DNA from: a virus
Lineage: Duplodnaviria; Heunggongvirae; Uroviricota; Caudoviricetes
IMG/VR virus record: IMGVR_UViG_2740892121_000006
Location: 1 to 40,095 of that record
Reading direction: 5' to 3' (one strand)
DNA length: 40,095 bases
Positions 9,426 through 40,095 of this stretch are shown here, piece after piece (within the stretch, counting starts at the first letter, position 1; every line of letters begins with the position of its first letter). The translations under genes were made by a program, and so were the position numbers. The notes beneath the pieces were generated by a model. It was not told the origin of the DNA and ran no database searches. It was given only the letters and a program-made list of their open reading frames with translations.

Positions 9426-9426
9426 T

Positions 9427-9438
9427 GTGACATGTCAC
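9427..9438. repeat. 12-bp perfect palindrome GTGACATGTCAC (copy 1)
   Basis: Identical 12-mer recurs at 29024-29035; related GGCATGTCAC at about 26759. Confidence 0.5.
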
Positions 9439-9439
9439 G

Positions 9440-9889: not shown

Positions 9890-9901
9890 AAAGGTCACCT
9901 A

Positions 9902-17054: not shown

Positions 17055-17518
17055 TATTTTCTCTCCATGTGAAATCTGTGGAAATTAAGACCAAGAGCAC
17101 CATAAGGCGCGGCTTCTTCAAGCCTGAATCCAAGCCAGTGCAGCCATGCTTTGGCAACATGGTTTCGCTCGTCGACATAGTTTTCCAGGCGCGGATAAAC
17201 TGCCAGCATCTGCTGCAATACAGGGCGGCAGTGGCGCAGAAATGTCTTCTGATATTTTTCAATACGGCTGGTCCCGACCAGCCATGGCGTACCATTGCCA
17301 CCGATCATTGACGCCGGAGATACACCAAACATGGTTACCAGCTCTCCGTTCGCGAACCCTGACCAGGCCATAGTCGCAGTGCGCAGACCAACACGCAGCG
17401 CATCTTCGGTAGTCATCAGCGATACCGCATACAGTTCGTCAATATCAGCCTGACGAACATCCGGCAAAATCATCTGAAGATGCTCTTCGGTAGCGGGAAT
17501 AATTCGAACATCGATCAT
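17054..17518 (-). CDS. Virion-associated protein (154 aa)
   Basis: Operon context between tail tube gene and internal proteins; ATGA-type coupling. Confidence 0.4.
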   Translation of the reverse strand: MIDVRIIPATEEHLQMILPDVRQADIDELYAVSLMTTEDALRVGLRTATMAWSGFANGELVTMFGVSPASMIGGNGTPWLVGTSRIEKYQKTFLRHCRPVLQQMLAVYPRLENYVDERNHVAKAWLHWLGFRLEEAAPYGALGLNFHRFHMERK

Positions 17519-19989: not shown

Positions 19990-20594
19990 CAGGACAACCT
20001 CGCAATGGTAAACTCATCAACCGGTGGCTGTGGTTCCTGTGATTCATTCTGGCTATGCGAGCCAGCACTAAGAATCACGCGATTGTACATATTGAGGGCA
20101 AACGTACCGAGGTCTGCATTCCCAGTCAGCGCCATGTTAATAGCTGCCGCAAGACGCCAGGCCAACGCCTCCATAAAAATGGCATCAAACATGTTCACAT
20201 CTGTAACGCGAGAGACATACTTGAGCCATGCCTGAGGCTGGTCTGTATAGATCAACTTTCCTGTTCCGTTGGTGTCTGCACCAACTTCGTACTGAACGCG
20301 CATTGCTGCTGTTGGATTGCGTACACCAGGAAGCATAATTTCAGTAATGCGCAGACAATCGGACGGGTACTGATACGCATATTCCCAGTCAGGCGGTGGA
20401 TTGCTCGTATCTGCAAGCGCCACGCGTTTAGTAGCAAAGTTCCAGTCAAAATCAGAAAGCACAGCATCACGGCAGGCTTCAAAGTGCAGCGAACATTCCC
20501 CCGCTTCCTTGCTGGCTTCCGTCAGGCTGTTAATGCTGCGGCTATTGCCAATATTGGACAGCGCACGATTGCAGATCTCTACTACAGAGGCCAT
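19989..20594 (-). CDS. Tail tubular protein A-like / adaptor (201 aa)
   Basis: Size and position analogous to T7 gp11; overlapping stop/start. Confidence 0.4.
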   Translation of the reverse strand: MASVVEICNRALSNIGNSRSINSLTEASKEAGECSLHFEACRDAVLSDFDWNFATKRVALADTSNPPPDWEYAYQYPSDCLRITEIMLPGVRNPTAAMRVQYEVGADTNGTGKLIYTDQPQAWLKYVSRVTDVNMFDAIFMEALAWRLAAAINMALTGNADLGTFALNMYNRVILSAGSHSQNESQEPQPPVDEFTIARLS

Positions 20595-20923
20595 TACTCA
20601 CCCCCATTGCCGTACAGAGTTTCAGCCGCTGATTTTTCTACATCCCCGGAAACAGGAGCGATCGCCATATCAGTGATCTGCAGATCGGCGCTACGATTAA
20701 CACCATCGTCAGTTTCTCTGGCAGACAGGCCTCGAATAACAGCCTTTGCAGTTATCATCACTTCTGTTCCGACGCCCTGAGGTTGCGCCTTCAGCTTATT
20801 CAATGTGTCGTTATTAAGAGTGATGCACAGCCCCCACGGGTATTCATCGCGAGTTCTGGTTTCTCCGCTCTCATCCTGGTAGCTGTCAGTGCCGGTTTTG
20901 AGGTTTACGAGTTCCATATACAC
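20594..20923 (-). CDS. Small head-tail joining or head-completion protein (109 aa)
   Basis: Position between capsid-proximal genes and tail tube genes. Confidence 0.35.
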   Translation of the reverse strand: MYMELVNLKTGTDSYQDESGETRTRDEYPWGLCITLNNDTLNKLKAQPQGVGTEVMITAKAVIRGLSARETDDGVNRSADLQITDMAIAPVSGDVEKSAAETLYGNGGE

Positions 20924-20967
20924 TCCTGCAATAAAGGGGCCGAAGCCCCTTGTCTGATCCGCGAGGC

Positions 20968-21303
20968 TTACACGCCCAGTTCTTTACGCTTATCTGCGAT
21001 CTTCTCGCGGAGCGTTTCGGCTTTGACTTTATGGTGTGGCTTCTCGTTAAAGAGCAATTCGTACTCTTCACGGAGCTTATCCAGTTCACCATCATCTGAC
21101 ACATCGTTGATGATTTTGGTGCTGGTTGCTGCCATTGACACCTTTCCTGCAACTTTTGCTTTTGCCTGTCTGGCTGCATCGTTAACAGGTTCCAGTGCGC
21201 TACCAGGCTCACCTTCGTATTCGATTTCTGCCCCCTCCGGCCACAGAGTGTTATGGATATGAGAGAGGCGCAAAACGCGGTATCTTGGTTTCTCACCTGA
21301 CAT
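20968..21303 (-). CDS. Hypothetical structural-module protein (111 aa)
   Basis: ATG 21303 with SD AAGGTGA; track start GTG 21312. Confidence 0.4.
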   Translation of the reverse strand: MSGEKPRYRVLRLSHIHNTLWPEGAEIEYEGEPGSALEPVNDAARQAKAKVAGKVSMAATSTKIINDVSDDGELDKLREEYELLFNEKPHHKVKAETLREKIADKRKELGV

Positions 21304-21313
21304 CGATATCACC

Positions 21314-21751
21314 TTAACCAGTTACTTTTGAGCGGATCGGATACGGCGTATTGGCATCAACATCAAGACTGATACCAGCAGTGAATTCGCCAGCCGTTAG
21401 TGGGCCAGTTGCGACGGAGTAGTTAACACGCAGATATCGCTGAACACCGGCAGGCACCTTTGCAGAAACAACTCGTTTACCTGCTGTCAGGGCGGTCTTT
21501 GCCAGTGCGCCACTATCATAAATAGTGGTCCATGAGCTGTTATTCTCACTCGTCTGCAACTGGATGTTTACAGTTGCATCACCGCTTGCCGCGGCGGCTG
21601 TGTTAACCAGCGCCCAAAACTCAAGCGGGTAACCCACGCCGATATCACGACGTTTTCCGTCAATTGGACCGAGATCGATTACGTCAGTAGAAGCCGCGGT
21701 ATTCGTAACCGCCTGAGCTTCGGAGAACATCAACAGTTTGTCGGTGATCAT
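21314..21751 (-). CDS. Possible capsid decoration / Ig-like protein (145 aa)
   Basis: Ser/Thr/Ala/Val-rich beta-type composition, immediately after major capsid gene and a stem-loop. Confidence 0.35.
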   Translation of the reverse strand: MITDKLLMFSEAQAVTNTAASTDVIDLGPIDGKRRDIGVGYPLEFWALVNTAAAASGDATVNIQLQTSENNSSWTTIYDSGALAKTALTAGKRVVSAKVPAGVQRYLRVNYSVATGPLTAGEFTAGISLDVDANTPYPIRSKVTG

Positions 21752-21802
21752 CTTCTTTCTCCATTAGTGGGTCTGTTACGACCCACAGGTTAATAACAGG
21801 CG

Positions 21803-22795
21803 TTACACCACGCGGGCTTCTGTTTCCAGAAGCGCATCAGTTTCACGGATTGGTACACCACGGAATGAAGTCCACCACTCGCCTTCTGTCTCTTTTACGC
21901 TGATCGCCAGAGATGTTTTCTCCAGAGATTGCAGATCAAGAGCCTGGCCTACAGTGCGGTTCATGTAGAACACCGGGCGACCCATGCCACGATTTGGAAT
22001 GCGATGCAGTGCTTTAACCATCAACTTCGCAATATTTGCGGCAGAGGAAGGTTCTGAAAGATTGCTGACATCGATGTTTGCAATGCGAACAACATAACGC
22101 CAGTCACGCAGAGCAAGTCCGTTGTCCCATTTGTAATGGGTACGGTAGCCTTCGTACTTGCCGCCATTCGCATCTTCCAGTGTCACCTGGCCTTTATCTT
22201 CCATCTGGATGCCAGCCTTCTGCCCTTTCGGGAAGATGCCATGCACGGTGTTTTCGCCCCAAACCACTAACCAGATTGAGGTGTTATCTGTACCCGTGCC
22301 ACCAGCATCAATGATGTTCTGAGCATTACCCGCAGACAGGCTGGAATAGCGGGAGGACAGTCCCATAAACTGCTGAGGGTTAACGCTGGAATCACCATAA
22401 AACAGTGTCTGCGCCATCTGCTGATTCATCGCTTCAATAAATGCGCGGTCTTCAGACAGGCGGAATTCGGCGGTATTACCGTTCAGATCAGCCAGTGACT
22501 TATCGACTTCAGCATAGGTTTCCAGCATGCCAACGGAATCGGTGACCTGCACTGTGGTTGATTTGCTTGGCTGTACACCATAGTTCAGCAAACGCCAGGT
22601 AGCTGAAGGTAAACCAGAACGAATGGTGGTTCGGTGTCCGGTAGGAAGGTTCCCTTCGACAAAAGGCATATCCTGAAGGATCGGGTTAGTTTGACCGAGA
22701 AGCTCGATAATCTTATCGACTTTCCCGTTTGGATCGACGCGCTTACCCCAGTCAGCCAGCGTTAGCGCAGTTAAGCCTTTAACAGCCATTGTCAT
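21803..22795 (-). CDS. Major capsid protein
   Basis: 330 aa, directly downstream of scaffold gene; size typical of podovirus HK97-fold coat proteins. Confidence 0.65.
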   Translation of the reverse strand: MTMAVKGLTALTLADWGKRVDPNGKVDKIIELLGQTNPILQDMPFVEGNLPTGHRTTIRSGLPSATWRLLNYGVQPSKSTTVQVTDSVGMLETYAEVDKSLADLNGNTAEFRLSEDRAFIEAMNQQMAQTLFYGDSSVNPQQFMGLSSRYSSLSAGNAQNIIDAGGTGTDNTSIWLVVWGENTVHGIFPKGQKAGIQMEDKGQVTLEDANGGKYEGYRTHYKWDNGLALRDWRYVVRIANIDVSNLSEPSSAANIAKLMVKALHRIPNRGMGRPVFYMNRTVGQALDLQSLEKTSLAISVKETEGEWWTSFRGVPIRETDALLETEARVV

Positions 22796-22803
22796 TTCCT
22801 CTC

Positions 22804-23499
22804 TTATTTGCCATAGAGCACTTCGGCCGCACTACGCTGGCCTTCATTACCACCGGTGACCATGCCATCTTCAGACATCGCCTTTCCGATTTTCACGAAC
22901 GTTTTGACCAGATCAGGGTGATTACCCAGCCCGGTGGTGTTCAGATATTCTTTGAGTTCAGGTGTCCCGAACTGGTCAAGCGCACGCTGTGCGGCGCTAA
23001 GGTTAGAAATCAACTTGTCGCCACCGATTTCTTTGTCAGCTTTTACATCCGCAGCCCACTGCTCGGTTGTTTTCTGCCAGGCTTCTGCCTGGCGCTGCTG
23101 AACACCTGCCAGAATCTTCGGATAAGCATCAACCAGCTTTTGCGCTTGCTCGTTGGTCAGGTTTAGTTCTCGCGCCACCGGCTCGAATTCCTTCAACGCT
23201 TCTGTATCCAGCTCTACGCCTTCGGCAGCCTGAAACTCGTACTTCTCCGGCGCACCCTCCGGTTTATCGCCGCCCTTTTTTTCATCCTGCTTATCGTTTT
23301 CAGGCTTTTTGTCATCAGCAGGTTTATCGCCATCAGCAACAGGTTGTGGCTTATCACCTTCCTGTTGTGATGGTTCACCAACTGGAGCAGGGGTATCACC
23401 TGCAGGCGCTGACGGTTCTGACGCAGCCGGAGCTGCTCCACCATCGACTGGTTGCTCATTGCAAAGACGGCGATACAGCAAACGCTCAAATAAATTCAT
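22804..23499 (-). CDS. Scaffolding protein
   Basis: Pro/Ala/Asp/Lys-rich low-complexity N-terminal half, helical C-terminal half; between portal and capsid; ATG 23499 with SD AGGAG. Confidence 0.6.
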   Translation of the reverse strand: MNLFERLLYRRLCNEQPVDGGAAPAASEPSAPAGDTPAPVGEPSQQEGDKPQPVADGDKPADDKKPENDKQDEKKGGDKPEGAPEKYEFQAAEGVELDTEALKEFEPVARELNLTNEQAQKLVDAYPKILAGVQQRQAEAWQKTTEQWAADVKADKEIGGDKLISNLSAAQRALDQFGTPELKEYLNTTGLGNHPDLVKTFVKIGKAMSEDGMVTGGNEGQRSAAEVLYGK

Positions 23500-23501
23500 G
23501 A

Positions 23502-23798
23502 TCACTCCTGTTCACTGGCCTCTTTGGCCATCTTCAAATACTGTTCAGGGCAATGCGCCATAACGCGCTGAAACAGTTCCAGCGCCAGATTGCGTTGCCC
23601 CTCATTAAATGCCATTGCCATAGCGTCCATCGGTGAGATAGCGGAAAACACACGGCCTTTCTCCAGCACCGACCAGACAACGCGACGCCCCTGTTCACTG
23701 CTCATGACAAAGCGAATGTCATCAATTTCACGCTGCGCCATGTCACGTTGCTTACGGGCGTTTTCTTCTTTCAGTTGATCGTCTTCGTAATCAGTCAT
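23502..23798 (-). CDS. Small acidic protein (98 aa), head-assembly context
   Basis: ATGA overlap with portal stop; coiled-coil-like charged sequence. Confidence 0.45.
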   Translation of the reverse strand: MTDYEDDQLKEENARKQRDMAQREIDDIRFVMSSEQGRRVVWSVLEKGRVFSAISPMDAMAMAFNEGQRNLALELFQRVMAHCPEQYLKMAKEASEQE

Positions 23799-25474
23799 TG
23801 TGATTGCCCACCCTGACCACTAACTGCATTCGCCATAGCTGACAAAACACTCGGATCCGAAGTTTTAGCTTCGCTTAGCGTCTTGGCGCCCTGTGCCGCC
23901 GCCATCCCCATCGCCATCATTTGTTGCTGCTGTTGCTGCTGTGCCCGTTGCTGGCGAGCCTGCTCAACCTGTTCCTGCGGAACAATGACGGTTGGAGACA
24001 CTCCGGACATATCAGCGAATGCATCGATCGCCTGATCAACGTTGAGTTTGTCGAGAGCTTCTGGTTTCGCTTGCGCAAGTTGACCAATGAAGTTGACCGT
24101 AGACGCCAGACTGGACAGGCCGATAGACTTCTGCGCCTGAGCCATGACGGAAATGTATTCGACCTTCAGGGGCATACCTTCCATCACGTCTGGCGGTGGC
24201 GGCAGCATGTTTTTACGCACCATCATTGAGAAAGCGCGGTCAATGAGAGGATTAAGACATTCGTCGTTCAGACGCTCCAGAACCGGCCCCAACATCAGAA
24301 GTTTTTCTTCTTTCATTTCGATCACTGCTTCAACAGGCATCGAGCGGGTATTGATGTTCTGCAACATCATGAACAGATCGACAAAGTAGGCGCTGTTAAT
24401 GATTTGACGAGTGTCCTGAATGTCTGCTACCAGATCTGCTGTACTGGGGTTAACCAGATAAGCAGGCCTGAAGCCATCCTGACCAGTAATCTGATCGATA
24501 TACGTGATGTCGCCAGGAAGAAGGGAGGCGCGCTGATTCTTGAGGGAAGTCGGAGCAACCATCGGCGGATTGGTGGCTTTATCAATCAACTGCGACTTGC
24601 GCTTCTGGAGAAGTTGCAATGCCTTAACAGGTCCAAGCGCCAGCATACCCGGGCATGATGATCCATAAACATCTTCGCCATTAACTTCCCAGCGCGGAGC
24701 CATAATTGGAAACTCATCAAATCCGGACTCACGCAACAACTTGTCGTTATCGCCACCAACCTCGTAATAAACCGATTTGAATGGCTTGTTCTTGCTATCC
24801 AGCTTCGATGTATCGCGGTCAATGTTCGGGTAAACCGAATGCATCACGTCAATCCACTTCTCGTAGGTGCCGCTTTCCCACATGCTTTTTACGGATTCGC
24901 TGACGTTATTTAGCCCGAACTCCTGAACAAGCTGACGAACAGTCATAGAGAACTTGCGAAAACAGGTGTCCACACTGCCACGAGGTGAGTTAGCCAGGTA
25001 GTAACTGCCTATCGGGAATGGCATTGTGCGAATGATGTCCTCGTCATCCTCCAGCACCGCCATTGCACCAGTGCTGTATGTGCCGAGGCTTCCGTATAAC
25101 TGCGGAAGAGACTGGTAGAGATTCGACTTATTGAACATATCGTTCATGCGGTTCTGCACCGCCTCGAGCCACAACTTAACAGGACCATAATCCATCATTT
25201 CAGGATCTGGCGTAGCCAGGCGAAACCACGGACGCGCGGGGCTTGTGATGCCTGACATCATGCCGCTGGCGAGAGTGCGCGCCGCCATAGTCCCGGTCGA
25301 ATCAATAATGCGTGTATTGCGTCGATCGTTACGGTTGACCTCAGAAGTCAGAAAGCGGGAACCACGCGGGTTGATGTAATCACTCAACTCGCGCCAGTGC
25401 GGCTCAAACGACTGACGCTCGCTTTCAAGTTGTGCGAACTGTTTGTTCAATCGCTCTTTAGTTGTTTCCGCCAT
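23795..25474 (-). CDS. Portal protein
   Basis: 559 aa; position after terminase and before scaffold; C-terminal Gln/Ala/Gly-rich tail. Confidence 0.7.
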   Translation of the reverse strand: MAETTKERLNKQFAQLESERQSFEPHWRELSDYINPRGSRFLTSEVNRNDRRNTRIIDSTGTMAARTLASGMMSGITSPARPWFRLATPDPEMMDYGPVKLWLEAVQNRMNDMFNKSNLYQSLPQLYGSLGTYSTGAMAVLEDDEDIIRTMPFPIGSYYLANSPRGSVDTCFRKFSMTVRQLVQEFGLNNVSESVKSMWESGTYEKWIDVMHSVYPNIDRDTSKLDSKNKPFKSVYYEVGGDNDKLLRESGFDEFPIMAPRWEVNGEDVYGSSCPGMLALGPVKALQLLQKRKSQLIDKATNPPMVAPTSLKNQRASLLPGDITYIDQITGQDGFRPAYLVNPSTADLVADIQDTRQIINSAYFVDLFMMLQNINTRSMPVEAVIEMKEEKLLMLGPVLERLNDECLNPLIDRAFSMMVRKNMLPPPPDVMEGMPLKVEYISVMAQAQKSIGLSSLASTVNFIGQLAQAKPEALDKLNVDQAIDAFADMSGVSPTVIVPQEQVEQARQQRAQQQQQQQMMAMGMAAAQGAKTLSEAKTSDPSVLSAMANAVSGQGGQSQ

Positions 25475-25488
25475 TTCAATGACTCCGG

Positions 25489-25695
25489 TTACTGACCAAG
25501 CAGCGTTTTACCGCTGGTATTAGCGGTTGATGTGTCGCCCTGAGAACCGGTAAGCAGCGTAGAACTACGACCAGCAGCAGCGCGACGGCGACGTGTTTCT
25601 TCGTCGCGGGCATCAACAACGGCGACATCCTGCTCCTGTGGTGCTGCCTGAACTTCTGGTGTTGCAGGCACTGATGGTGAGCTACCCATGCACAT
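25489..25695 (-). CDS. Small acidic/Pro-rich protein (68 aa)
   Basis: SD GGAG 8 nt upstream of ATG 25695; preferred over overlapping frame 25476-25715 whose translation is Cys/His/Arg-rich. Confidence 0.35.
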   Translation of the reverse strand: MCMGSSPSVPATPEVQAAPQEQDVAVVDARDEETRRRRAAAGRSSTLLTGSQGDTSTANTSGKTLLGQ

Positions 25696-25784
25696 ATCAA
25701 TGACTCCGTACGCAATTAAATTATTACCAATTTAACCACATATGTTTTATTTATCGTAGAAGGTTGACATTTAACGCGCTAATT

Positions 25785-25801
25785 ATTACCTTTCAGGTAA
25801 C
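25785..25801. promoter_or_regulatory. 17-bp palindrome (candidate operator) with TTGACA hexamer upstream
   Basis: ATTACCTTTCAGGTAAC, identical in 16/17 positions including spacer to the site at 5717; TTGACA at 25764-25769; half-site ATTACC at 25723. Confidence 0.45.
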
Positions 25802-26122
25802 TAAAGAGTTCATTCCGGTTACTAACCTGACTGGCTTGTCGTTAAATTGAACAGGTGGAGTGAGCTTTTATTTTGAGCAGTACGGCGTATGGCACATGCG
25901 CCGATAGCGGTCTGGATACGTTTAAGGGGCACCCTCCCTTGCTCGGGCAAACGAACCAGGTAGCCGGAATGTGCAAGTCGAGCGGTTTTATTCCGCGCAC
26001 GGGGATTCACCATCCCGGCGATTCGGTGTGACGCCTCGGAAGAGACGAGGGTACAACGATGAGAGCATTTATGGAGCCGCGACAAAGTGTGGCGCCTTAA
26101 CAGGCTAAGTGCTCTCAGCGTT

Positions 26123-26199
26123 GTGGCATTAGCTCAGTTGGACAGAGCAACCGCCTTCTAAGCGGTTGGTCGCAGGTTCGAATCCTGCATGCCACGCCA
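26123..26199 (+). tRNA. tRNA-Arg (anticodon UCU, reads AGA)
   Basis: Cloverleaf read by eye: acceptor GTGGCAT/ATGCCAC, D-arm AGCTCAGTTGGACAGAGC, anticodon loop CUUCUAA, T-arm GCAGGTTCGAATCCTGC, discriminator G, encoded CCA. Confidence 0.85.
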
Positions 26200-26242
26200 G
26201 AATCACGCCTAAGGACCGTGATGCCAGAAGTTCCAGGGGCTT

Positions 26243-26286
26243 GGCGGTGATGGTTTCCCTTGAAGGACTATCACCGCCCTTTTTAC
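26243..26286 (+). terminator. Rho-independent terminator after tRNA
   Basis: About 10-bp stem GGCGGTGATGG / CTATCACCGCC followed by CTTTTT. Confidence 0.65.
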
Positions 26287-26362
26287 AGCAGGACGCCATT
26301 GCGATGACTTCATGCTGTAAACCAGTACAGCCACGGAAGGCATAACTCATTGCTTCCAGTTC

Positions 26363-26386
26363 GCCCGGTTCGCCGGGCATTTTTTT
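26363..26386 (+). terminator. Terminator-like hairpin abutting the RBS of gene 26398
   Basis: GCCCGG-TTCG-CCGGGC then ATTTTTTT, 11 nt before SD AAGGTGAG. Confidence 0.5.
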
Positions 26387-26397
26387 AAGGTGAGATT

Positions 26398-26754
26398 ATG
26401 AACGACCAGCAAATCGAAAAAGAAATCGTTGAGAAAGGCAAAACCGCTCCGCGAGTTACGCCTCAATATATCGAAAGCATCATTCTTGAAGAGCATTTCT
26501 TTACTGCTTATGACGGCATTCGTGCTGCCAATATGGGCGTTGGCGATTCATGGACAGCGCATAAATCTACAGACCTCCTGACTTTCTGCGTATTGGTACT
26601 GAAGAATGGCTTCACCGTCACCGGAGAGAGTGCCTGTGCAAGTCCGGAAAATTTTGATGCAGAAATTGGTCGGAAGATTGCCCGGCAGAATGCTGTAAAC
26701 AAAATCTGGATGCTCGAAGGTTACTTGCTGAAGCAGAAGTTAAGCGAGCAATAA
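26398..26754 (+). CDS. Conserved small phage protein of unknown function (moron)
   Basis: 118 aa, strong SD AAGGTGAG; opposite strand to flanking terminase/portal genes. Confidence 0.5.
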   Translation: MNDQQIEKEIVEKGKTAPRVTPQYIESIILEEHFFTAYDGIRAANMGVGDSWTAHKSTDLLTFCVLVLKNGFTVTGESACASPENFDAEIGRKIARQNAVNKIWMLEGYLLKQKLSEQ

Positions 26755-26844
26755 CACCGTGGCATGTCACAAACAGCAAGCCTATGAACTGGCTTTGTTT
26801 TATCCTCACCAGAAGATATCAACGACATTATCCCCACCAGCGAA

Positions 26845-28320
26845 TTAAGCATAAGGGTCATAATCCGTTATGGCCCTTCCCTGCTGGCTTTGCTGTCCTG
26901 GTATATTTATGCGTTTCGAGACCGGGAAAGCAAACGTCAGCAGTAGCGCATCGCCTTTACCAGGAGAACGCCCAAGACGCTCTTTGATATCTTCCTTCGG
27001 TTCGATAACGATTTTACCGTCCACACGAACTTTGTACTCTGCCGCAGACAGGTCGTCCGCTGTTTCCTGGTCATCCAGCATGCCGCCCAGCCTCAGCCAT
27101 GTCTTGCATGAGTTGAACATCTCCCCACGCTTGTTGAGCATCTGCGGGTCAGTAGACGCACCACCGAACGGAACAAGTTGCCATGTGCGCCCCCAACCAT
27201 CACCGATTGACTTCAGACCGGTACCGTAACCGAAGTCGATGAACACCGCGTCAGCCTGATACTGGTCTTCAAAGTCAGCGATACGCTTCGCCATAATCAG
27301 ATCGTCGGTAGTCTTGTTGCCAGTCCACAGCACCTTACTGTGTAGCCCCTGCCGCAGGTATATCACCGCGTCATCAACGCCTGAATATGCCGGGTCAACA
27401 CCGATTATCACCGGAGCATGCGCCACCTGCGCAGCGGTTACCACCCGTTTCATTGCCTCATCAGTAAGACCGGTAGGGATAAACTGCAATTCAGATGCAT
27501 CAGGGAATATGCCGCGCACACGGATTTTAACGAAGTCGCTGTCTTCCCCGTAGTCATCGACCCATTTCTGCAACTGCTGTTTGTTAGTGCCTTCCACCGT
27601 CCGGCTGTCAATCTGCGCAGTTTTCCAGCGGTGTTTATATTTGCGGAAACATTCGCGGAAACGCCCGGTGTTACGTGTAGGGTTTCCGAACGCCACCCAG
27701 ATAATCTCAGTGTCTTCGTCCGTAAGCGCACCCTCAGCAACTTCCCACACCAGATCCGCAATGTTCGACGCTTCATCGAATACCACGATGATGCGTTTGC
27801 GCTCGTTGTGTAGTCCGGCGAATGCCTCAGTGTTGTGCTCAGACCAGGGGATTGCGTCAGCTCGCCACCGCTTGTCGTGCCCAGGATCATTGCTGTACAT
27901 CGCGGTAGCGGTACAGGTAAACCAGTCTTTCGTGATAGCAAGGTTCGACCACTTGATAATTTCCGGCCAGGTCTTCGTTCGTAGCTGGTTGTCGGTGTTG
28001 GCGGTCACCACGACCTTACAATCCTCGCAAGTGGACATGCCCCAGTTGATCAGCATTGAGATGAATGCGGATTTACCAATACCGTGACCAGAAGCACGTG
28101 CCAGCATAAGCGGCTGATATCGCGTCTCTGGATTCTGCAGGTGATCACGTATCTCTCGGAACGCATCGGCCTGCCACTGACGTGGACCGGTGGCATGTGC
28201 CAGTTCAGTACCCTCTTCCCCCCACGGGAACGCATAGAGGGCATAGCCAAGCGGATCGTGAGTGAACCCTGCAATATCCTCGATTAACTGCTCTTCAGGA
28301 GATAACGCTGTATCTGTCAC
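26845..28320 (-). CDS. Terminase large subunit
   Basis: ATPase motifs (Walker A-like GHGIGKS, Walker B-like VVFDEASN) and C-terminal nuclease-type acidic motifs (IIGVDPAYSG); overlaps terS stop. Confidence 0.85.
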   Translation of the reverse strand: MTDTALSPEEQLIEDIAGFTHDPLGYALYAFPWGEEGTELAHATGPRQWQADAFREIRDHLQNPETRYQPLMLARASGHGIGKSAFISMLINWGMSTCEDCKVVVTANTDNQLRTKTWPEIIKWSNLAITKDWFTCTATAMYSNDPGHDKRWRADAIPWSEHNTEAFAGLHNERKRIIVVFDEASNIADLVWEVAEGALTDEDTEIIWVAFGNPTRNTGRFRECFRKYKHRWKTAQIDSRTVEGTNKQQLQKWVDDYGEDSDFVKIRVRGIFPDASELQFIPTGLTDEAMKRVVTAAQVAHAPVIIGVDPAYSGVDDAVIYLRQGLHSKVLWTGNKTTDDLIMAKRIADFEDQYQADAVFIDFGYGTGLKSIGDGWGRTWQLVPFGGASTDPQMLNKRGEMFNSCKTWLRLGGMLDDQETADDLSAAEYKVRVDGKIVIEPKEDIKERLGRSPGKGDALLLTFAFPVSKRINIPGQQSQQGRAITDYDPYA

Positions 28321-28910
28321 TGATTACCATCCTGACGTTCTTTGAGTCGCTTCCTGGCTGCTGCTATGCGATCAGCAATTGTCACATTCACATTAACATC
28401 CAGGCGTTCTTTGAACGCATTGACGTCGACGTGCTTACCAATCAGTTCGAGGTTCTTCACCTTGTCAGGCCATTTAATTTTTTTGAGAATTGTCTCTATC
28501 GAATCCTCGTTCATGTTCATGATGGTCGATGACAGATCAAAGCCGCTAAGCGTAGTGCGCCAGATTTTCGGCCACTCTCGGATTGGCTTAAGGCTCCCAT
28601 CGTCGTTGAGGATATCAATCACGTCCATCTGGTCGATCTCCACCAGGCGCATGAGAACGTAATCAGCACTGACGCGCATTCGTTTGTTGCGCTCCTCCAT
28701 CAACTCGGCAATCCGTTTTTGAATGCGTTCATCGCGCATCATGACACTGGCTTTAACTGCCGCTGTATTTGGGGAGAATCCTGCGTTAATCGCTGCCTGA
28801 GTCTGGTTTTCAGGCGTTTTGATGTATGACTGACAATAAGCCTCCTGCATTGCTGTTAGTGGCTTAAATTGCGTTGATTTGCGTTTATAGGTTTTAGGTT
28901 CAGCAGGCAT
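28317..28910 (-). CDS. Terminase small subunit
   Basis: LTAMQEAYCQSYIKTPENQTQAAINAGFSPNTAAVKAS matches the terminase small subunit HTH pattern; ATG 28910 with SD GGTGG; track TTG 28991 extension contains a terminator hairpin. Confidence 0.75.
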   Translation of the reverse strand: MPAEPKTYKRKSTQFKPLTAMQEAYCQSYIKTPENQTQAAINAGFSPNTAAVKASVMMRDERIQKRIAELMEERNKRMRVSADYVLMRLVEIDQMDVIDILNDDGSLKPIREWPKIWRTTLSGFDLSSTIMNMNEDSIETILKKIKWPDKVKNLELIGKHVDVNAFKERLDVNVNVTIADRIAAARKRLKERQDGNQ

Positions 28911-28955
28911 CATAACCACCGTGGTAATAGTTACCGTTGTGGTAATAGTACCATG

Positions 28956-28982
28956 CAAAATAAAGCCGCCATAGTTGGCGGC
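28956..28982 (-). terminator. Rho-independent terminator just upstream of terS
   Basis: Minus strand: GCCGCC-AACTAT-GGCGGC followed by TTTATTTTG. Confidence 0.6.
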
Positions 28983-29023
28983 AGTATTCAAAACCCATCA
29001 AATTCATCATGCATAATCTACTC

Positions 29024-29035
29024 GTGACATGTCAC
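29024..29035. repeat. 12-bp perfect palindrome GTGACATGTCAC (copy 2)
   Basis: Overlaps stop codon of gene 29032-29379, about 110 bp upstream of terS start. Confidence 0.5.
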
Positions 29036-29379
29036 ACTATTAATTTCGTTTCATGCCAGCCTTTAGTCACCCAGCATTGCGAGTCACCATTACACGGGCA
29101 TGAATTAACGGGAACTCTCTCGCCGCACTTACCGCAAAGTTTTCTGCTGATCGATTTTATACGCCCGCGCACACGTGCATCATCCTGGCGGATCAGCAGC
29201 GCGATGTACTCGGCCATTTCATAGGGATCGCGACCAGGGCGCCGGGCGGCGCAGTTCCGCGCCAGCATTTCCTGCTCCTGCTTATCCAGCACCAGTTCAA
29301 TTTTGCGCTCACCGGCGGCGGACTGCCGAGCGCGCTGCGCGGCTTTGCGTTCTGCGGGGGATTTAGCCACGAATCGCAC
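29032..29379 (-). CDS. Basic protein with C-terminal Cys-rich zinc-ribbon-like motif; candidate regulator
   Basis: CGKCGERVPVNSCPCNGDSQC motif; Arg/Ala-rich helical N-terminus; last gene before terminator and terS; start GTG 29379 or 29370. Confidence 0.4.
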   Translation of the reverse strand: MRFVAKSPAERKAAQRARQSAAGERKIELVLDKQEQEMLARNCAARRPGRDPYEMAEYIALLIRQDDARVRGRIKSISRKLCGKCGERVPVNSCPCNGDSQCWVTKGWHETKLIV

Positions 29380-29485
29380 TCCACGCCAGATTGATTAATG
29401 ACTCCCAGGTAATATAAACCCGGATACCAGCAGCCAGGCCGAAACCAATCACCATGGCATAAAGCAGAGCGTTGCACTTGTTCAT
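29363..29485 (-). CDS. Unlisted small hydrophobic peptide (40 aa)
   Basis: MNKCNALLYAMVIGFGLAAGIRVYITWESLINLAWSAIRG; ATG overlaps upstream TGA (ATGA) and its end overlaps the next gene start; below the 60-aa cutoff of the ORF track. Confidence 0.3.
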   Translation of the reverse strand: MNKCNALLYAMVIGFGLAAGIRVYITWESLINLAWSAIRG

Positions 29486-30300
29486 CACTTCACCTCATGC
29501 GGCGATTCTGGTAGAAGCATCCAATTGATTACATCGCATTCAGGTATGCTGATATCATCACCAAGCCACCCTTGACCTTCAGACCAGCATTGCACGTAAT
29601 ACCCGTATTCTGTGTTCACTACGCACCACTGCGCGTCGTTCGGCATTCGCTCACTACAGCTTATCCAACCATCCGGAGTTCCCGGAGAATTGCCATTTAC
29701 CAAGTCAGCTCGAACATATAGCGTGTCATCATGGTGCTGATTGTGGCTGCACCACGTTAATTCGCTTAACTCGCCATCTTCTGGCCATACTCCAGCTGTT
29801 TGCAGCCAGATATGGGCTGGCGCATCCTGGCAAGGTGTATTAACTGGCAACTTGTAAGTTTGGCTTACAGGTTCGGCACCATGAAGCATGGCGCCGCTCC
29901 GCTCTATGCCATCCAGCGCGATTCGCAGTGCCTGAATTGTGGTAGAGCTATCGTTTGGGGCTATTCCATATCGCTCGAATACAGCTAAATGGTTGCGCAT
30001 AATCTCAGGCGTAAGCTCTTTGTAAGCATAAGCAAGAGGCTCTGATGCATTATCCAGCACAACCGACGCAGGCGCGGCAGCATAAACAGGAATAACGTCC
30101 GCTTGCTCTTTATTGCTTTCATCCGTTAAAGCCCAGAATAATTTCCCGGCCGGATGTTTGAAAATATAAGCAACTGGATCTGCTTCCAGCGATGCCAGTG
30201 CAATTTCATAAGCACGGCGCTCAATATTGTCTCGAACGTCCAAGCTGCCTATGCGCTCTTTGATTTCTTTAATCATTTCTTTGTCGGTTAAAGTTGTCAT
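29485..30300 (-). CDS. DUF551-like phage protein
   Basis: C-terminal Trp/Cys-rich module (PDGWISCSERMPNDAQWCVV...) recalled as DUF551-type; ATGA coupling with upstream gene. Confidence 0.45.
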   Translation of the reverse strand: MTTLTDKEMIKEIKERIGSLDVRDNIERRAYEIALASLEADPVAYIFKHPAGKLFWALTDESNKEQADVIPVYAAAPASVVLDNASEPLAYAYKELTPEIMRNHLAVFERYGIAPNDSSTTIQALRIALDGIERSGAMLHGAEPVSQTYKLPVNTPCQDAPAHIWLQTAGVWPEDGELSELTWCSHNQHHDDTLYVRADLVNGNSPGTPDGWISCSERMPNDAQWCVVNTEYGYYVQCWSEGQGWLGDDISIPECDVINWMLLPESPHEVK

Positions 30301-30812
30301 GCCGCGTTTCCTTCTTTCTTATTAACAATTACACCGTCATATATTTCATTAAGGTGTCCTCTTAGCTCCATGCGCCTTAATGCAGATAACATGTAATCGC
30401 ATTCAACCTGCTTATTCCCAGTAAATGGCTTATCGTCAGGATTACCCCAACAGCAATTCCCCTTGGGCCATCCATGTACTTTCCGTACTCTTCCGTTAAC
30501 AACGTGAAGTAATCCCCAGCCGGGAGGTAAATCCTCAACTGAAATAATTCCCGGCTCACTAATAAAGAATCGCCAGTCGCCCATTCCAAGAGACGGATTT
30601 TTACGGAAACGCTTTTTTCTATCTGCCAACAAGTCAGCACGAGAACACTTCGCCTCTATCAAGCATGATGCTGAATTTCTGAATCCCATAGCATCTGGCT
30701 GTTCTCCGGTACTGGTTACAGCTATAAAGCGGTCATGAAAGCAAACCTTGAACCCGTTGCGCTTAAGGAACTTGTACGCAATCTGACAGAGTTCGCGGTG
30801 TGTTAACGCCAT
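30297..30812 (-). CDS. Hypothetical protein, possible PD-(D/E)XK-type nuclease motif
   Basis: D...EAK arrangement (GEQPDAMGF...CLIEAKCS); SD GGAGAG upstream. Confidence 0.4.
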   Translation of the reverse strand: MALTHRELCQIAYKFLKRNGFKVCFHDRFIAVTSTGEQPDAMGFRNSASCLIEAKCSRADLLADRKKRFRKNPSLGMGDWRFFISEPGIISVEDLPPGWGLLHVVNGRVRKVHGWPKGNCCWGNPDDKPFTGNKQVECDYMLSALRRMELRGHLNEIYDGVIVNKKEGNAA

Positions 30813-30813
30813 C

Positions 30814-31026
30814 TCACTCTCCTTTAGTGCGCAGATAACAGTGGTTTTTCCAGCGGTTTTGCACCGCGCTACGCTTATCTTTGACTCCCTCTCTGGCTAT
30901 TCCAGAAAATGAGAACAACACCACACGGCGATTGCTAACTCTCAACCACTGGCTGGGGTAGCAAAGTCTGTATACACGGGAAATTAGCATCTTTGCTTTA
31001 CGATTGTTGGTTGCCATATCGTTCAT
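30814..31026 (-). CDS. Small basic hypothetical protein (70 aa)
   Basis: ORF directly upstream of and coupled to 30297-30812; weak coding character. Confidence 0.3.
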   Translation of the reverse strand: MNDMATNNRKAKMLISRVYRLCYPSQWLRVSNRRVVLFSFSGIAREGVKDKRSAVQNRWKNHCYLRTKGE

Positions 31027-31071
31027 CCTTTGATGCGAATGCCAGCGATAATTGAAGCCTGATAGCTAATT

Positions 31072-31523
31072 TTACTCACAGCCCCCCTGATAATTTCCCT
31101 GATAAAACGCCAGCACGCGCTGCATAACTTCGCTCTTCCTGCACTCGCAACAGATTATGTTCTGACGCCTGTCGTAGCGGCGTATTTCTCCGTCTGGTAA
31201 TGACCAGATAAGGTCAGGATCAACCACAACCGGTTTTTTCACCTTTTCCCTTGATAGTTTTTTGCGGGCGTTTTGCCAGTCTTTACGCGCCTGCTCAGAC
31301 GGGAATAATCCGTAGCCTGAATTGTATACATCACCACTGGCAACCAGCTCTCTGGCAAGAACGCTCAGCAGATATCTTGTCGCACCAGTTGCACTTCCAG
31401 TTGCGTTGCCAAATCGCTGATCAGCTTTGCCACACTGCGCATATCAACGGCACCACATTCTGCTTTCAGTTCCGAAGCCATCTCATGCCCGGCGGCAACT
31501 AACCCTTTGATATTACTTTCCAT
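31072..31523 (-). pseudogene. Apparent frameshifted gene (52-aa ORF followed by overlapping 124-codon frame)
   Basis: ATG 31523 with SD GAGGG gives 52 aa ending TGA 31365; a second protein-like frame runs 31443-31072 with no start codon until GTG 31242; no slippery heptamer seen. Confidence 0.35.
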
Positions 31524-35244: not shown

Positions 35245-35544
35245 ATGAACGTTAATCAGCAGAAAAATCTTCAAAAAATCATGCTGGCATTCGACAAGGA
35301 CTACCGCCTGTCAGAACAGCTATATGACCGACAAGTTGAACTGATCGAGAGCATCCGGCTTCATCAACTGGCCTCAACTTTCGACGCTGTAACAGGTAAA
35401 GGCGTTCGCCAGGAAGTACTGGAGGCCGCTAAAGACAGTCCAGAGTTCGAAGAACTGATGGATTCCTACCGGCGAGAGGCAATGGCAATTATCGCCCGCT
35501 GGGATCTGGCTGATCAGCTTGATGGGCAGAGGGACGCGGCATGA
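35245..35544 (+). CDS. Hypothetical early protein (99 aa)
   Basis: SD GGGAGGG 7 nt upstream of ATG 35245; ATGA coupling to exonuclease gene. Confidence 0.5.
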   Translation: MNVNQQKNLQKIMLAFDKDYRLSEQLYDRQVELIESIRLHQLASTFDAVTGKGVRQEVLEAAKDSPEFEELMDSYRREAMAIIARWDLADQLDGQRDAA

Positions 35545-36362
35545 AACCGGGAATTTATTTCGACATCAGCAACGAAGACTACCACGCCGGTGACGGCGTG
35601 AGTAAGTCGCAACTGGACATGGTTGCCAAGAATCCGGCGCTTCTTAAATGGGTTCAGGCAGCACCAGAAGACGAAGAGAAAAAGTCTGCACTGGATATGG
35701 GAACCGCATTGCACTGTCTGCTTCTGGAGCCTGGAGAGTTCGACAAACGCTTCATTGTTTCACCGAAATTCGAACGTCGGACGAAACAAGGTAAAGCTGA
35801 CGAAGAGGCATTTCTTCGTGATATTGCGGATATGGGGATTTCGGTACTTGATGCAGAGCAGTGGCGGAAACTGGAGCTGATGCGTGATAGCGCAATGGCT
35901 CACCCGGCGGCACGCTGGATGTTGGAAGCACCTGGTTACTGCGAAGCATCAATGTACTGGAACGATGAAGAGACGGGGGAGTTGTGCCGAATTCGTCCAG
36001 ACAAATGGCTGAACGAGCACAACGTGATCGTCGACGTGAAAAAGGTTGCAGATATGGACCGTTTTGCACGCCACATCGAGGAATTCCGCTACCACGTGCA
36101 GGACGCAATGTACCGCGAAGGCGCAATGAGGGTTACTGGTCAGCCGCATGGTTTTTTCTTTCTTGCCGTGAGCGAAAGCATTGATTGTGGTCGGTATCCG
36201 GTACGCGTGTTCGAGCTGGATGCGCAGGATGTCGATGCCGGGCACGCTCTGTTCCGCCGGGATCTGAATACCTATCACGAATGCCGCATCAATGATGAAT
36301 GGGGCGGTGTGGAAATCATTAAACGCCCTGAGTGGGCACGCAAACAGGATATGTACATATGA
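35541..36362 (+). CDS. PD-(D/E)XK exonuclease (RecE/YqaJ-like recombination exonuclease)
   Basis: Acidic/Lys motif RPDKW...VIVDVKKV; immediately upstream of and coupled (ATGA) to RecT. Confidence 0.6.
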   Translation: MKPGIYFDISNEDYHAGDGVSKSQLDMVAKNPALLKWVQAAPEDEEKKSALDMGTALHCLLLEPGEFDKRFIVSPKFERRTKQGKADEEAFLRDIADMGISVLDAEQWRKLELMRDSAMAHPAARWMLEAPGYCEASMYWNDEETGELCRIRPDKWLNEHNVIVDVKKVADMDRFARHIEEFRYHVQDAMYREGAMRVTGQPHGFFFLAVSESIDCGRYPVRVFELDAQDVDAGHALFRRDLNTYHECRINDEWGGVEIIKRPEWARKQDMYI

Positions 36363-37300
36363 GCAACGACATCGCAAACATCAACGCACCAGTAGACACA
36401 GCAATCGCTGGAACTGCTGCAACTATTTTCAGCCCAGACGGCTTGAACCAACTGATGAAATTCGCCGAGGTAATGGCGCAAAGCCGCGTAACGGTACCGG
36501 CGCACCTCGCCGGGAAACCAGCTGATTGCATGGCCGTGGCAATGCAGGCTGCGCAGTGGGGAATGAACCCGTTTGCCGTGGCTCAGAAAACCCATGTTGT
36601 GAACGGCACGCTAGGTTATGAAGCCCAATTAGTAAACGCAGTTATCTCAACGATGTCGCCAACAAAAGATCGCATCAACTACGAGTGGTTCGGGCCGTGG
36701 GAACGCGTGATCGGTAAGTTTGTTGAGAAAACATCCAAAAACGGCAATCCATATATCGCACCAGGCTGGACTCTAAAAGACGAAGAAGGCTGCGGTGTTC
36801 GCGTATGGGCAACCATGAAGGGCGAGGATCAACCTCGAGTGCTTGAGTTAATGCTGTCTCAAGCACAGGTAAGAAACTCCACACTTTGGGCCAGTGATCC
36901 GAAACAACAACTCGCATACCTTGCGACAAAACGCTGGTCTCGCTTGCACTGTCCTGACGTAATCATGGGCGTCTACACCCCTGACGAATTACAGGAAACG
37001 GCACCGCGCGTTGAGCGAGACATTACTCCGCAAACGACCACTGCTGCGGGAATGAACAGTCTGATCAACGCTAAACCAGTGAAAAAGCCTGATGAGCAAA
37101 CGCGTAAAGCGGATAGCCGTGATCCAGAAGAAATGCTGATGGCCTTTACCAGCGCAGCGATGAATTACAGCACTGTCTCCGAACTGGATAAGGCTTACAA
37201 ATACATTGAACAGAAACTTTCAGATGATGACGAACTGCTGGCAAAAGCCACCGACGTTTACAGCGTTCGTCGGGAAGAATTAAACGAAACATCTATGTAA
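36359..37300 (+). CDS. recT: RecT-family single-strand annealing recombinase
   Basis: Characteristic RecT-like core (LGYEAQLVNAVIS..., WASDPKQQLAYLATKRWSRL); paired with exonuclease. Confidence 0.75.
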   Translation: MSNDIANINAPVDTAIAGTAATIFSPDGLNQLMKFAEVMAQSRVTVPAHLAGKPADCMAVAMQAAQWGMNPFAVAQKTHVVNGTLGYEAQLVNAVISTMSPTKDRINYEWFGPWERVIGKFVEKTSKNGNPYIAPGWTLKDEEGCGVRVWATMKGEDQPRVLELMLSQAQVRNSTLWASDPKQQLAYLATKRWSRLHCPDVIMGVYTPDELQETAPRVERDITPQTTTAAGMNSLINAKPVKKPDEQTRKADSRDPEEMLMAFTSAAMNYSTVSELDKAYKYIEQKLSDDDELLAKATDVYSVRREELNETSM

Positions 37301-37349: not shown

Positions 37350-37598
37350 ATGAAAGGTGCATTAGGTAAGAAGGAACTCCTGGCGGTGGTGCCACTGTCA
37401 TGGAGCACTATCGACCGTATGGAGCGCGCAGGGGAATTTCCTAAACGCTGGTATATCACTGACAAACGCTGCGCATGGAACCGTGACGAAGTTGAGCGTT
37501 GGCTTGATGAACGTCAGGCAGCAAGCCCGGCAGAGTTCCAGGGTAAAAAGCCTCCTGTTCAGCAACGTGTATATCGTCCTGTGAGCAACGCTGCATGA
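37350..37598 (+). CDS. AlpA-family DNA-binding protein / excisionase-like
   Basis: LSWSTIDRMERAGEFPKRWYITDKRCAWNRDEVERWL matches AlpA/Xis-type HTH pattern. Confidence 0.6.
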   Translation: MKGALGKKELLAVVPLSWSTIDRMERAGEFPKRWYITDKRCAWNRDEVERWLDERQAASPAEFQGKKPPVQQRVYRPVSNAA

Positions 37599-37707: not shown

Positions 37708-38007
37708 GTGAGAAAGTTAAGCCGACTTGAAAAATATCACATGAACAAGGTTTCAATGCGCCGTCCTTCAAAGGTTATCGCCGTTACTCCTGCGGCGATA
37801 GAGTTCGAAAAACGCGCGATTGAAAGAGAGAAAAAAGGGCAGTTCCGCATTGCCGCCCACCTTTGGCTTCAGTGTATGGATGTTGCTTCTGGTGATGTTG
37901 AGCGTGCAAGGATCGCGGTTCGCAGGGACCAATGTATCACAAAAGGTAACGGCCTTCGCCGTGGAGACTATAGCGGTATAGGATGTTGCGGGGTGGTTTA
38001 TGACTAA
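37708..38007 (+). CDS. Hypothetical protein (99 aa)
   Basis: Track ORF from GTG; alternative ATG starts at 37741/37756; overlaps methyltransferase start. Confidence 0.35.
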   Translation: MRKLSRLEKYHMNKVSMRRPSKVIAVTPAAIEFEKRAIEREKKGQFRIAAHLWLQCMDVASGDVERARIAVRRDQCITKGNGLRRGDYSGIGCCGVVYD

Positions 38008-38650
38008 GAAATACACGCTAATCTATGCAGATCCACCATGGGTATACCGGGACAAAGCCGCAGATGGTAATCGCGGTGCCGGTTTTAAATATCCAGTTAT
38101 GAGTGTGCTGGATATCTGCCGCCTTCCTGTGTGGGATTTGGCCGCTGAAAACTGTCTGTTGGCCATGTGGTGGGTGCCAACACAACCACTCGAAGCACTA
38201 AAAGTTGTTGAAGCCTGGGGATTTCGTCTTATGACCATGAAGGGCTTCACGTGGATAAAATGTGGTAGTCGACAACCAGATAAACTGGTTATGGGTATGG
38301 GACACATGACTCGCGCCAATAGTGAAGATTGCCTGTTTGCGGTAAAGGGAAAACTACCTCCGCGCATTAATGCAGGGATCGTTCAGTCATTTACCGCACC
38401 GCGGCTTGAGCACTCAAGAAAACCAGATGTCGTTCGTGAAAAACTTGTGCAATTGTTAGGCGATGTTTCTCGCATTGAACTGTTCGCCCGCCAGTCGTCT
38501 CATGGCTTCGATGTTTGGGGTAATCAGTGCGAAGACTCGGCAGTGCAACTACACCCTGGATACGCGTTGGATATTGGCGGATTAACAAATGCATTCAGCA
38601 ATTCTCCGCTGTCACCAACAGACAACCAGGGGCGGGAGCGTGCTGCATGA
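38000..38650 (+). CDS. MT-A70 family N6-adenine DNA methyltransferase (orphan)
   Basis: N-terminal catalytic motif YADPPW; no adjacent restriction endonuclease gene. Confidence 0.8.
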   Translation: MTKKYTLIYADPPWVYRDKAADGNRGAGFKYPVMSVLDICRLPVWDLAAENCLLAMWWVPTQPLEALKVVEAWGFRLMTMKGFTWIKCGSRQPDKLVMGMGHMTRANSEDCLFAVKGKLPPRINAGIVQSFTAPRLEHSRKPDVVREKLVQLLGDVSRIELFARQSSHGFDVWGNQCEDSAVQLHPGYALDIGGLTNAFSNSPLSPTDNQGRERAA

Positions 38651-38841
38651 ACATGGCATCACCAGCAGATTTAAGAAAATGCCTTGAAACTGCAAACATG
38701 CTTGCACACAGCGGGATCAGGTTTGTTCCAATTCCCGCTGTCACTGATGCTGAATTTGCAACACTGTCAGCAATATTCGAAAACAAAATTGAATCACTGG
38801 CAGCAGAAGCAGAGATGGAAGAAAATCAGCAGAACTATTAA
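38647..38841 (+). CDS. Small acidic hypothetical protein (64 aa)
   Basis: ATGA overlap with methyltransferase stop; ATG 38647. Confidence 0.4.
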   Translation: MNMASPADLRKCLETANMLAHSGIRFVPIPAVTDAEFATLSAIFENKIESLAAEAEMEENQQNY

Positions 38842-38844: not shown

Positions 38845-40095
38845 TTATTCCCCCGCCATCCACTTCTCAAACTTCGACGGGGAGAACGGAATCAGATCCG
38901 TATGCTCCCCGTTAATCCAGGAATCAATCATATCGGCCCACTGCTGCAACATGTAGGCGCGCTGTCTGGCGTATTCCGCTTTGTTATATACGGCGCGCAC
39001 ACCTTTCTGCTCATGTGCCAGAGCCTTTTCAATCCAGTCTGAAGGATAACCAGCCTCATGCAACAACGTACTGGCTGTACGGCGCATATCGTGTACGGTG
39101 AAGCCCTGAATATGCTCACCATCTTCATTTATTATTTTCACCGTTCTGTCGATCAGAGAGTTCAGCGCGGCATTAGATAATGGCTTCCGGAAATTGTAAC
39201 GACCAGGAACCAGATATTCACTTCCACCAGCGCACATCTGCAACCCAACCAATATATCCTGTGCCTGTTTAGGCAGGTAAATAACGTGCGCCCGGCTTCC
39301 CTTCATGCGGTCTGAAGGAATTGTCCATGTCCATTTTTTAAAATCTATTTCATCCCACGTTGCATTGGTGAATTCGCCTTTACGAACCATAGTGATAAGC
39401 ACCAGCTTTAAAGCCATTTTCATAGTGCCCATAGCACCAATGGCATCCAGCGTGCGGAAGAACAGACCAATTTCTTCTGGTGTCAGTGTTCGCTCTCGTG
39501 GTTTAAATATGGCGATAGACGAAGGTTTAATGTCAGCCGCAGGATTAAACAAACCATGACCACGGTCATTGGCATGACGGTATACGCTGCTGATGATCTC
39601 CCTGGCCTGCACTGCTGTTGCCCGGCCGCCGCGTTCGACAATCCGGTCACACAAATCACGAACCATCGATGTGGTAATTTCAGTCATCATTTTGTTGCCA
39701 AGAACCGGAAGTATGTCACGGTCGATCACCACCTGCTTCATTGCGCGGGTACTGTCAGCCAGGATGACATGTTTCATATAACTGTCGGTATGTACCGCAA
39801 ACGTCTCGGCACCACGAATCTTTTTGATACCGTCACGTTTAGCCGCAGCCGGTGACTGGCCTGCTTTAAGCAGCTTCTTTGCAGCAATCAGTTCTTCTCG
39901 CGCTTCTGCCAGGCTGATACCGTCACGCCCATACTGCCCGATTACCAGTGTTTCGCGGCGACCGTTGATACGGTAGTCATAGCGAAACGAGACCGTGCCT
40001 GACGTAAGCACAGCTACATACAGCCCGTCACGATCGGAGACCTTGTACAGTTTGTCCTGCGGCTTGAGGTTTTTTAATTTTGTATCGGTAAGCAC
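38845..40095 (-). CDS. int: Tyrosine integrase (phage integrase family), 5' end at or beyond window edge
   Basis: N-terminal LTDTKLKNLKP...GLYVAV SAM-like domain, C-terminal catalytic region with HDMRRT and tyrosine-bearing tail; ORF reaches last base of window. Confidence 0.85.
   Translation of the reverse strand: MLTDTKLKNLKPQDKLYKVSDRDGLYVAVLTSGTVSFRYDYRINGRRETLVIGQYGRDGISLAEAREELIAAKKLLKAGQSPAAAKRDGIKKIRGAETFAVHTDSYMKHVILADSTRAMKQVVIDRDILPVLGNKMMTEITTSMVRDLCDRIVERGGRATAVQAREIISSVYRHANDRGHGLFNPAADIKPSSIAIFKPRERTLTPEEIGLFFRTLDAIGAMGTMKMALKLVLITMVRKGEFTNATWDEIDFKKWTWTIPSDRMKGSRAHVIYLPKQAQDILVGLQMCAGGSEYLVPGRYNFRKPLSNAALNSLIDRTVKIINEDGEHIQGFTVHDMRRTASTLLHEAGYPSDWIEKALAHEQKGVRAVYNKAEYARQRAYMLQQWADMIDSWINGEHTDLIPFSPSKFEKWMAGE

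Follow-up and report, generated by a model that had tools for sequence, protein, structure and literature searches.

The integrase gene at the end of the window (the whole 40,095 nt stretch of viral DNA analysed here) is, with a probability of roughly 95 %, the complete int gene of a phiV10/epsilon15-type prophage of E. coli integrated at guaA, and its GTG start codon occupies the last three bases of the window. Coordinates of the integrase, its att core, the neighbouring phage genes and the host flank are collected in Table 1.

Table 1. Features of the window that bear on the integration module; positions are those of the window
Feature	Position	Strand	Basis or remark
Host flank, yfgH	1–516	+	ORFs; RefSeq annotation of collinear EcPF40
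Host flank, yfgI	532–1071	+	ORFs; RefSeq annotation of collinear EcPF40
Original guaA terminator hairpin, apparently displaced by the prophage	1112–1139	-	RNA fold -17.8 kcal/mol, z = -5.4
Integrase-distal att core copy AATCATTCCCACTCAAT, prophage/host junction	1162–1178		Exact 17/17 match
Uetakevirus (phiV10/epsilon15-type) prophage body	1179–40095		Second core reached ~190 bp beyond the window end
Candidate arm-type site ATACCGTCAC (GTGACGGTAT on the int-sense strand)	1250–1259	+	att arm on the lysis-gene side
tRNA-Arg (anticodon TCT)	26123–26199		Between terminase and portal gene blocks, 14 kb from int
AlpA-family small DNA-binding protein, 82 aa, likely excisionase	37350–37598	+	Pfam Phage_AlpA, E = 3e-5
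PerC-family transcriptional activator	37708–38007		Beside int, order as in phiV10
MT-A70 adenine methyltransferase	38000–38650		Beside int, order as in phiV10
DUF1382 gene	38647–38841		Directly beside int, order as in phiV10
Integrase, 416 aa, P4-type tyrosine recombinase	38845–40095	-	ORF list, three Pfam domains, RefSeq bounds
Integrase stop codon TAA	38847–38845	-	
Copies of the 9-mer ATACCGTCA	39827–39836, 39917–39926, 39575–39583, 1250–1259		Three within the 5′ half of int
Candidate integrase-binding 10-mer, RDGI residues 86–89	39827–39836	+	Counterpart of epsilon15 protein_bind 27198–27207
Candidate integrase-binding 10-mer, RDGI residues 56–59	39917–39926	+	Counterpart of epsilon15 protein_bind 27108–27117
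GTG start codon of the integrase	40093–40095	-	Last three bases of the window

The initial annotation of this DNA had described an integrase reading frame that reaches position 40095, and this was borne out both by the ORF list, in which a minus-strand ORF of 1251 nt (416 codons plus TAA) touches the last base of the window, and by three Pfam domains in its product. Arm-DNA-bind_3 (PF13356) covers residues 2–87 (E = 4e-20), Phage_int_M (PF22022, E = 3e-11) corresponds to the central core-binding domain and Phage_integrase (PF00589) spans residues 204–375 (E = 5.8e-19, 69 bits, cut-off 27.1), which cover positions 3–170 of the 172 in the profile. In the alignment from a PDB search with the full-length protein, R238, H335, R338 and H361 corresponded to R212, H308, R311 and H333 of lambda Int. 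This alignment stops short of Y370, which was assigned as the probable nucleophile by its spacing, nine residues past H361, Y342 of lambda Int likewise lying past H333; the catalytic Lys is probably K265, which was insecurely aligned. A PDB search with the C-terminal half alone returned only matches to WD40 repeats, which were judged spurious. The protein has the catalytic domain and the residues (R, H-x-x-R and H, with the assigned Tyr) that characterize the tyrosine recombinase superfamily, and its N-terminal Arm-DNA-bind_3 domain and central core-binding domain are those of P4-type (heterobivalent) integrases.

In the E. coli strain EcPF40, RefSeq annotates a 416 aa tyrosine recombinase (WP_001617201.1) with exactly the bounds of the ORF in the window, and a CDS of 416 aa was called identically by PGAP and by phage annotators (EcPF40, phiV10). 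The exact 416 aa protein was indexed in 4519 blocks of a public gene-call collection, and the last 1.5 kb of the window was matched in 554 of 5426 complete E. coli genomes (best match 99.9 %). Three matches to the integrase region in the E. coli genome collection were located on plasmids. No promoter was found by a promoter scan 5′ of int.

The integrase of phiV10 (YP_512286.1) is also 416 aa long, also has a GTG start and is identical at 412 of 416 residues (99 %). phiV10 and vB_EcoP_ZX5 (integrase ORF12), both belonging to Uetakevirus, share the core, the 190 nt spacing between core and integrase start and the guaA 3′ end as target, and their int genes likewise have DUF1382, MT-A70 methylase, PerC and AlpA genes as neighbours. 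Apart from the four amino acid substitutions in Int, the integration module did not differ from that of phiV10, whereas the prophage did differ from phiV10 elsewhere, in the tail-fibre/accessory-gene region and partly in the early region. The epsilon15 integrase (NP_848235.1) is collinear over its full length and has the same length, start context, core and spacing, although it shows only 81 % nucleotide and 86.5 % amino acid identity and the host of epsilon15 is Salmonella. The three-domain architecture is also that of the P4/CP4-57-type integrases (INT_P4, cd00801), and the CP4-like arm domains 3ju0 and 3jtz in the PDB matched the arm domain with E values of 1e-11 to 1e-12; typical INT_P4 members target tRNA or tmRNA genes, whereas the target of the integrase of the window is a protein-coding gene, at its 3′ end. 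Lambda integrase has the same heterobivalent tyrosine recombinase mechanism and its R, H, R and H residues could be aligned, but the similarity is weak (E about 3e-4) and both the arm-domain family and the target differ.

Judged from its sequence, the element is a full-length, ordinary Uetakevirus prophage of E. coli. Of its 38,917 bases within the window, 24,585 aligned to phiV10 with a mean identity of 94 %, and identity to phiV10 reached 97 % in each of two blocks, the packaging/structural block (16573–29031) and the int–early block. Genes were present for terminase, portal and major capsid proteins, an epsilon15-type capsid staple, a T7 gp14-like core protein, holin, endolysin, spanin, repressor, DnaT-like and P-like replication proteins and RecT, as well as for the MT-A70 methylase, PerC and DUF1382 proteins. 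The length from core to core was extrapolated to ~39.1 kb, compared with 39,104 bp for phiV10. A different reading is that the element is a decayed remnant whose integrase is intact by chance and whose capacity for excision has been lost, through a damaged proximal core or the loss of essential genes; consistent with this, ~37 % of the prophage body did not align to phiV10, ~6–16 kb is mosaic, and the second core is known here from near-identical genomes and not from the window's own. However, the unaligned parts are the usual variable modules of tail-fibre and accessory genes, the full-length int ORF shares 99 % identity with its counterpart in a viable phage, all 17 positions of the core match in the copy at 1162–1178, and the extrapolated length equals that of phiV10. 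In addition, the close relative EcPF40 is annotated with a full set of structural, lysis and replication genes, and lysogens of ZX5 were spontaneously induced (PMC9782041), so that decay is improbable.

Two accessory regions (about 6068–10342 and 29370–31380) were mosaic and unlike both EcPF40 and phiV10, and their best matches in E. coli carry genes for a YafO-family toxin, DUF2335 and BRO-N/antirepressor proteins. No complete E. coli genome covered more than 80 % of the variable region at 5500–12000, and none in the collection agreed with the window throughout. The interval 35541–37300 contains separate, overlapping genes for a PD-(D/E)XK nuclease-like protein (273 aa) and RecT (322 aa); in phiV10 a single RecE-RecT fusion (p37) is annotated.

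The start codon was assigned from annotation and sequence context. DNA past position 40095 was read in near-identical genomes, not in the window's own genome; among these, contig L005 had one mismatch to the window in 4251 nt and EcPF40 was 99.95 % identical over the last 8.7 kb. Across the window edge EcPF40 reads ...TATACGGGTGAATT/GTGCTTACC (the slash marking the edge), and the bases directly before the GTG in the window's own genome are expected to be ...GGGTGAATT. An in-frame TGA lies two codons 5′ of the GTG (TGA-ATT-GTG) in every related sequence read, comprising EcPF40, the four contigs that encode an identical protein (L004–L007), phiV10, epsilon15, the Enterobacter phage Tyrion and the Salmonella phage PAT1, and a Shine–Dalgarno-like GGGTGA is located just 5′ of the GTG. 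The arm domain begins at residue 2 of the integrase, which corresponds to position 1 of PF13356 and to residue 3 of PDB 3ju0/3jtz, indicating an N-terminus with no missing part, and the first 20 residues do not vary among relatives with only ~80 % nucleotide identity. The integrase ORF is therefore regarded as complete, with the GTG at 40095–40093 as its start. The true start had initially been placed outside the window; a search for it there, in the near-identical genomes, met the in-frame TGA and gave no upstream extension of the frame. The window opens exactly at the ATG of yfgH and closes exactly at the GTG of int; its limits were evidently set by gene boundaries, and this explains the impression that the ORF continued past its end. 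As GTG is a minority start codon, translation might alternatively begin further inside the frame, for instance at codon 29, where the next GTG in frame is found. This would remove the conserved N-terminus LTDTKLKNLKP, which aligns with PF13356 and with two solved arm domains, and the Shine–Dalgarno-like sequence before the terminal GTG and the invariance of the first 20 residues also speak against it; we consider it very improbable.

Comparison of the two ends of the EcPF40 prophage yielded one 17 bp direct repeat, AATCATTCCCACTCAAT. An exact match to it occurs once in the window, where 0.03 would be expected by chance, and is flanked by yfgI and the phage lysis genes; the second copy in EcPF40 overlaps the stop codon of guaA. 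Read as its reverse complement, ATTGAGTGGGAATGATT, the repeat forms the guaA 3′ end with the stop codon and two further bases, and on the guaA strand the core reads ATT GAG TGG GAA TGA tt (I-E-W-E-stop). The integrase-proximal core is located 191–207 bp past the window end in all near-identical genomes (EcPF40 and the four contigs with an identical integrase), and by extrapolation it would occupy 40286–40302 in the window's own genome. A spacing of 190 nt between core and int start was found in EcPF40, L004–L007, phiV10, epsilon15 and Tyrion; the exact core was absent from the segment of PAT1 that was read, despite its GTG/TGA context. Four representative contexts (29 contigs) were read, and in each of them guaA lies 192 bp upstream of int and is followed by guaB.

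Both parental sites could be rebuilt. An attB composed of the left flank of the window and guaA with a single core occurs uninterrupted and at 100 % identity in several E. coli genomes, and the rebuilt empty site, annotated as yfgI next to guaA, was contiguous in 4567 of 5426 complete genomes. An attP composed of the two phage-side flanks with a single core was contiguous in free phage genomes, among them phiV10, Tyrion, PAT1, ZX5 and the O157 typing phages. The same 17-mer has been described as the attP/attB core of vB_EcoP_ZX5, located 190 bp from int on its 5′ side and in the guaA 3′ end; junction PCR with Sanger sequencing verified attB, attL and attR of ZX5, and the core was stated to be already proven for phiV10 and epsilon15 (PMC9782041). 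The window has the orthologous Int, the junction core at 1162–1178 and the restored attB and attP of the Uetakevirus guaA module, and the second core 190 bp 5′ of int is present in EcPF40 and in the four contigs with an identical integrase.

Genes for tRNA or tmRNA are common targets of P4-type integrases (PMC9782041), and the initial annotation had placed the att site, often a tRNA or tmRNA 3′ end for this integrase type, just beyond the window, limiting any statement on the insertion locus. The integrase-proximal core does lie outside, as proposed, and the distal copy lies inside the window; likewise, the DNA past the window edge in near-identical genomes contains the anticipated direct repeat, with guaA as the neighbouring gene and no tRNA gene. 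A tRNA/tmRNA scan of the window detected only the phage-internal tRNA-Arg(TCT), which is unrelated to att, and no tRNA was found between int and guaA in any context read, so the guaA 3′ end takes the place of the tRNA or tmRNA 3′ end that is usual for P4-type integrases. As such targeting is a habit of the P4 family and not a defining property, the assignment of the integrase to this family stands. The host genes yfgH and yfgI are those normally found beside guaA in E. coli. Since they, the distal core and the displaced guaA terminator are all inside the window, the window by itself suffices to identify the insertion locus, and its statement need not be limited: on this evidence the prophage is inserted at the guaA 3′ end, with guaA on one side and yfgI on the other. 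The view that the ORF is cut by the window edge, with its start upstream and the phage beside a tRNA or tmRNA gene carrying att, has in its favour that Arm-DNA-bind_3 integrases commonly use such genes and that the ORF does touch the last base, but the TGA two codons 5′ of the GTG in every related sequence, the alignment of the arm domain from residue 2, the position of guaA next to int in every context and the identity of the core with the guaA 3′ end make it highly unlikely and, for all close relatives, count as having already refuted it.

The insertion would also affect transcription signals around guaA. The host terminator hairpin, AACCCTCTGT-TACT-ACAGAGGGTTTTT, which is located directly 3′ of guaA in empty-site genomes, is found in the window beside yfgI. 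The phage arm that lies downstream of guaA carries the hairpin AACCCTCTGT-TTTT-ACAGAGGGTTTTT (-16.2 kcal/mol, z about -5.4; L002 45679–45702, outside the window), whose 10 bp stems and T tract are identical to those of the host. A consensus terminator scan of 1000–1400 missed the host hairpin, which was clear on folding, because its A/T-extended stem absorbs the T tract. The phage thus appears to substitute its own terminator for the displaced guaA terminator, the original being left beside yfgI.

Repeated motifs around attP are candidates for binding by the integrase arm domain. The window contains four copies of the 9-mer ATACCGTCA, against 0.16 expected, all of them near attP. Each of the five phages compared has the 10-mer GTGACGGTAT at -287, -65, +170 and +260 from the int start, the copy at -65 falling outside the window, and inverted 9-mers are located at about -36 and +512. 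The site on the lysis-gene side belongs to repeat families D2, I4 and I5 in the phiV10 attP, its motif is enriched in the window and its position is conserved in five phages; the epsilon15 equivalent (26651–26660) is annotated as protein_bind ‘integrase’. epsilon15 has the 10-mers at the same four positions, and its RefSeq record already flags four direct copies as predicted integrase binding sites. Two of the 9-mer copies in int form part of an exact 12-mer, CGTGACGGTATC; the RDGI peptide that it encodes appears twice, within and just past the arm-binding domain. At the two RDGI sites, three relatives of ~80 % nucleotide identity had identical codons for D, G and I (18 of 18 codon comparisons), whereas elsewhere in int only 55–59 % of positions with the same amino acid had identical codons. 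No experimental test of the GTGACGGTAT sites was found. That the conserved 10-mers are real binding sites of the arm domain, two of them inside the 5′ part of int (+170 and +260), is a tentative proposal that we hold to be possible though rather doubtful; if they are real, the attP/regulatory region would reach ~470 bp from the core into int, implying autoregulation or an unusually long arm.

A candidate for the directionality of recombination is the AlpA-family protein encoded at 37350–37598, whose match to Phage_AlpA passes the curated cut-off. Its positional homologue in epsilon15, the AlpA-type gp33, is annotated as ‘excisionase and transcriptional regulator’, and p36 of phiV10 is annotated as AlpA family, which makes it likely that the protein is the excisionase (recombination directionality factor).

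In the mechanism that we propose, the N-terminal domain of the integrase is predicted to bind the repeated GTGACGGTAT sites around attP, whilst the core-binding and catalytic domains would exchange strands within the 17 bp ATTGAGTGGGAATGATT common to attP and the guaA 3′ end; actual integration at this core is known from the literature on related phages. The phage would be inserted between guaA and yfgI, and guaA would keep its reading frame, since its last five codons and stop are part of the core. The phage-borne near-copy of the guaA terminator would end up downstream of guaA, and excision would probably require the AlpA-family protein.

The module is ordinary and already known, being the integration module of phiV10, epsilon15 and ZX5. 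As the int gene is complete and both the boundaries of the prophage and its locus can be stated with confidence, the earlier caveat on the insertion locus can be dropped; beyond correct annotation this matters little. The case illustrates that the target of a P4-type integrase need not be a tRNA gene and that windows can end exactly at start codons. The resistance island GIsul2 also has a tyrosine recombinase with an adjoining alpA and inserts at the guaA 3′ end, but it is not a phage, and its arm structure differs, with three att sites. Its 8 bp crossover site, GAGTGGGA, falls inside the same 17 bp core, which points to the guaA 3′ end as a shared hotspot. About 859 of the 5426 complete E. 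coli genomes were without a contiguous yfgI–guaA empty site and only 554 carry the integrase of the window; other elements therefore probably also use the guaA/yfgI site, and the hotspot is of mild interest for the cataloguing of integration sites.
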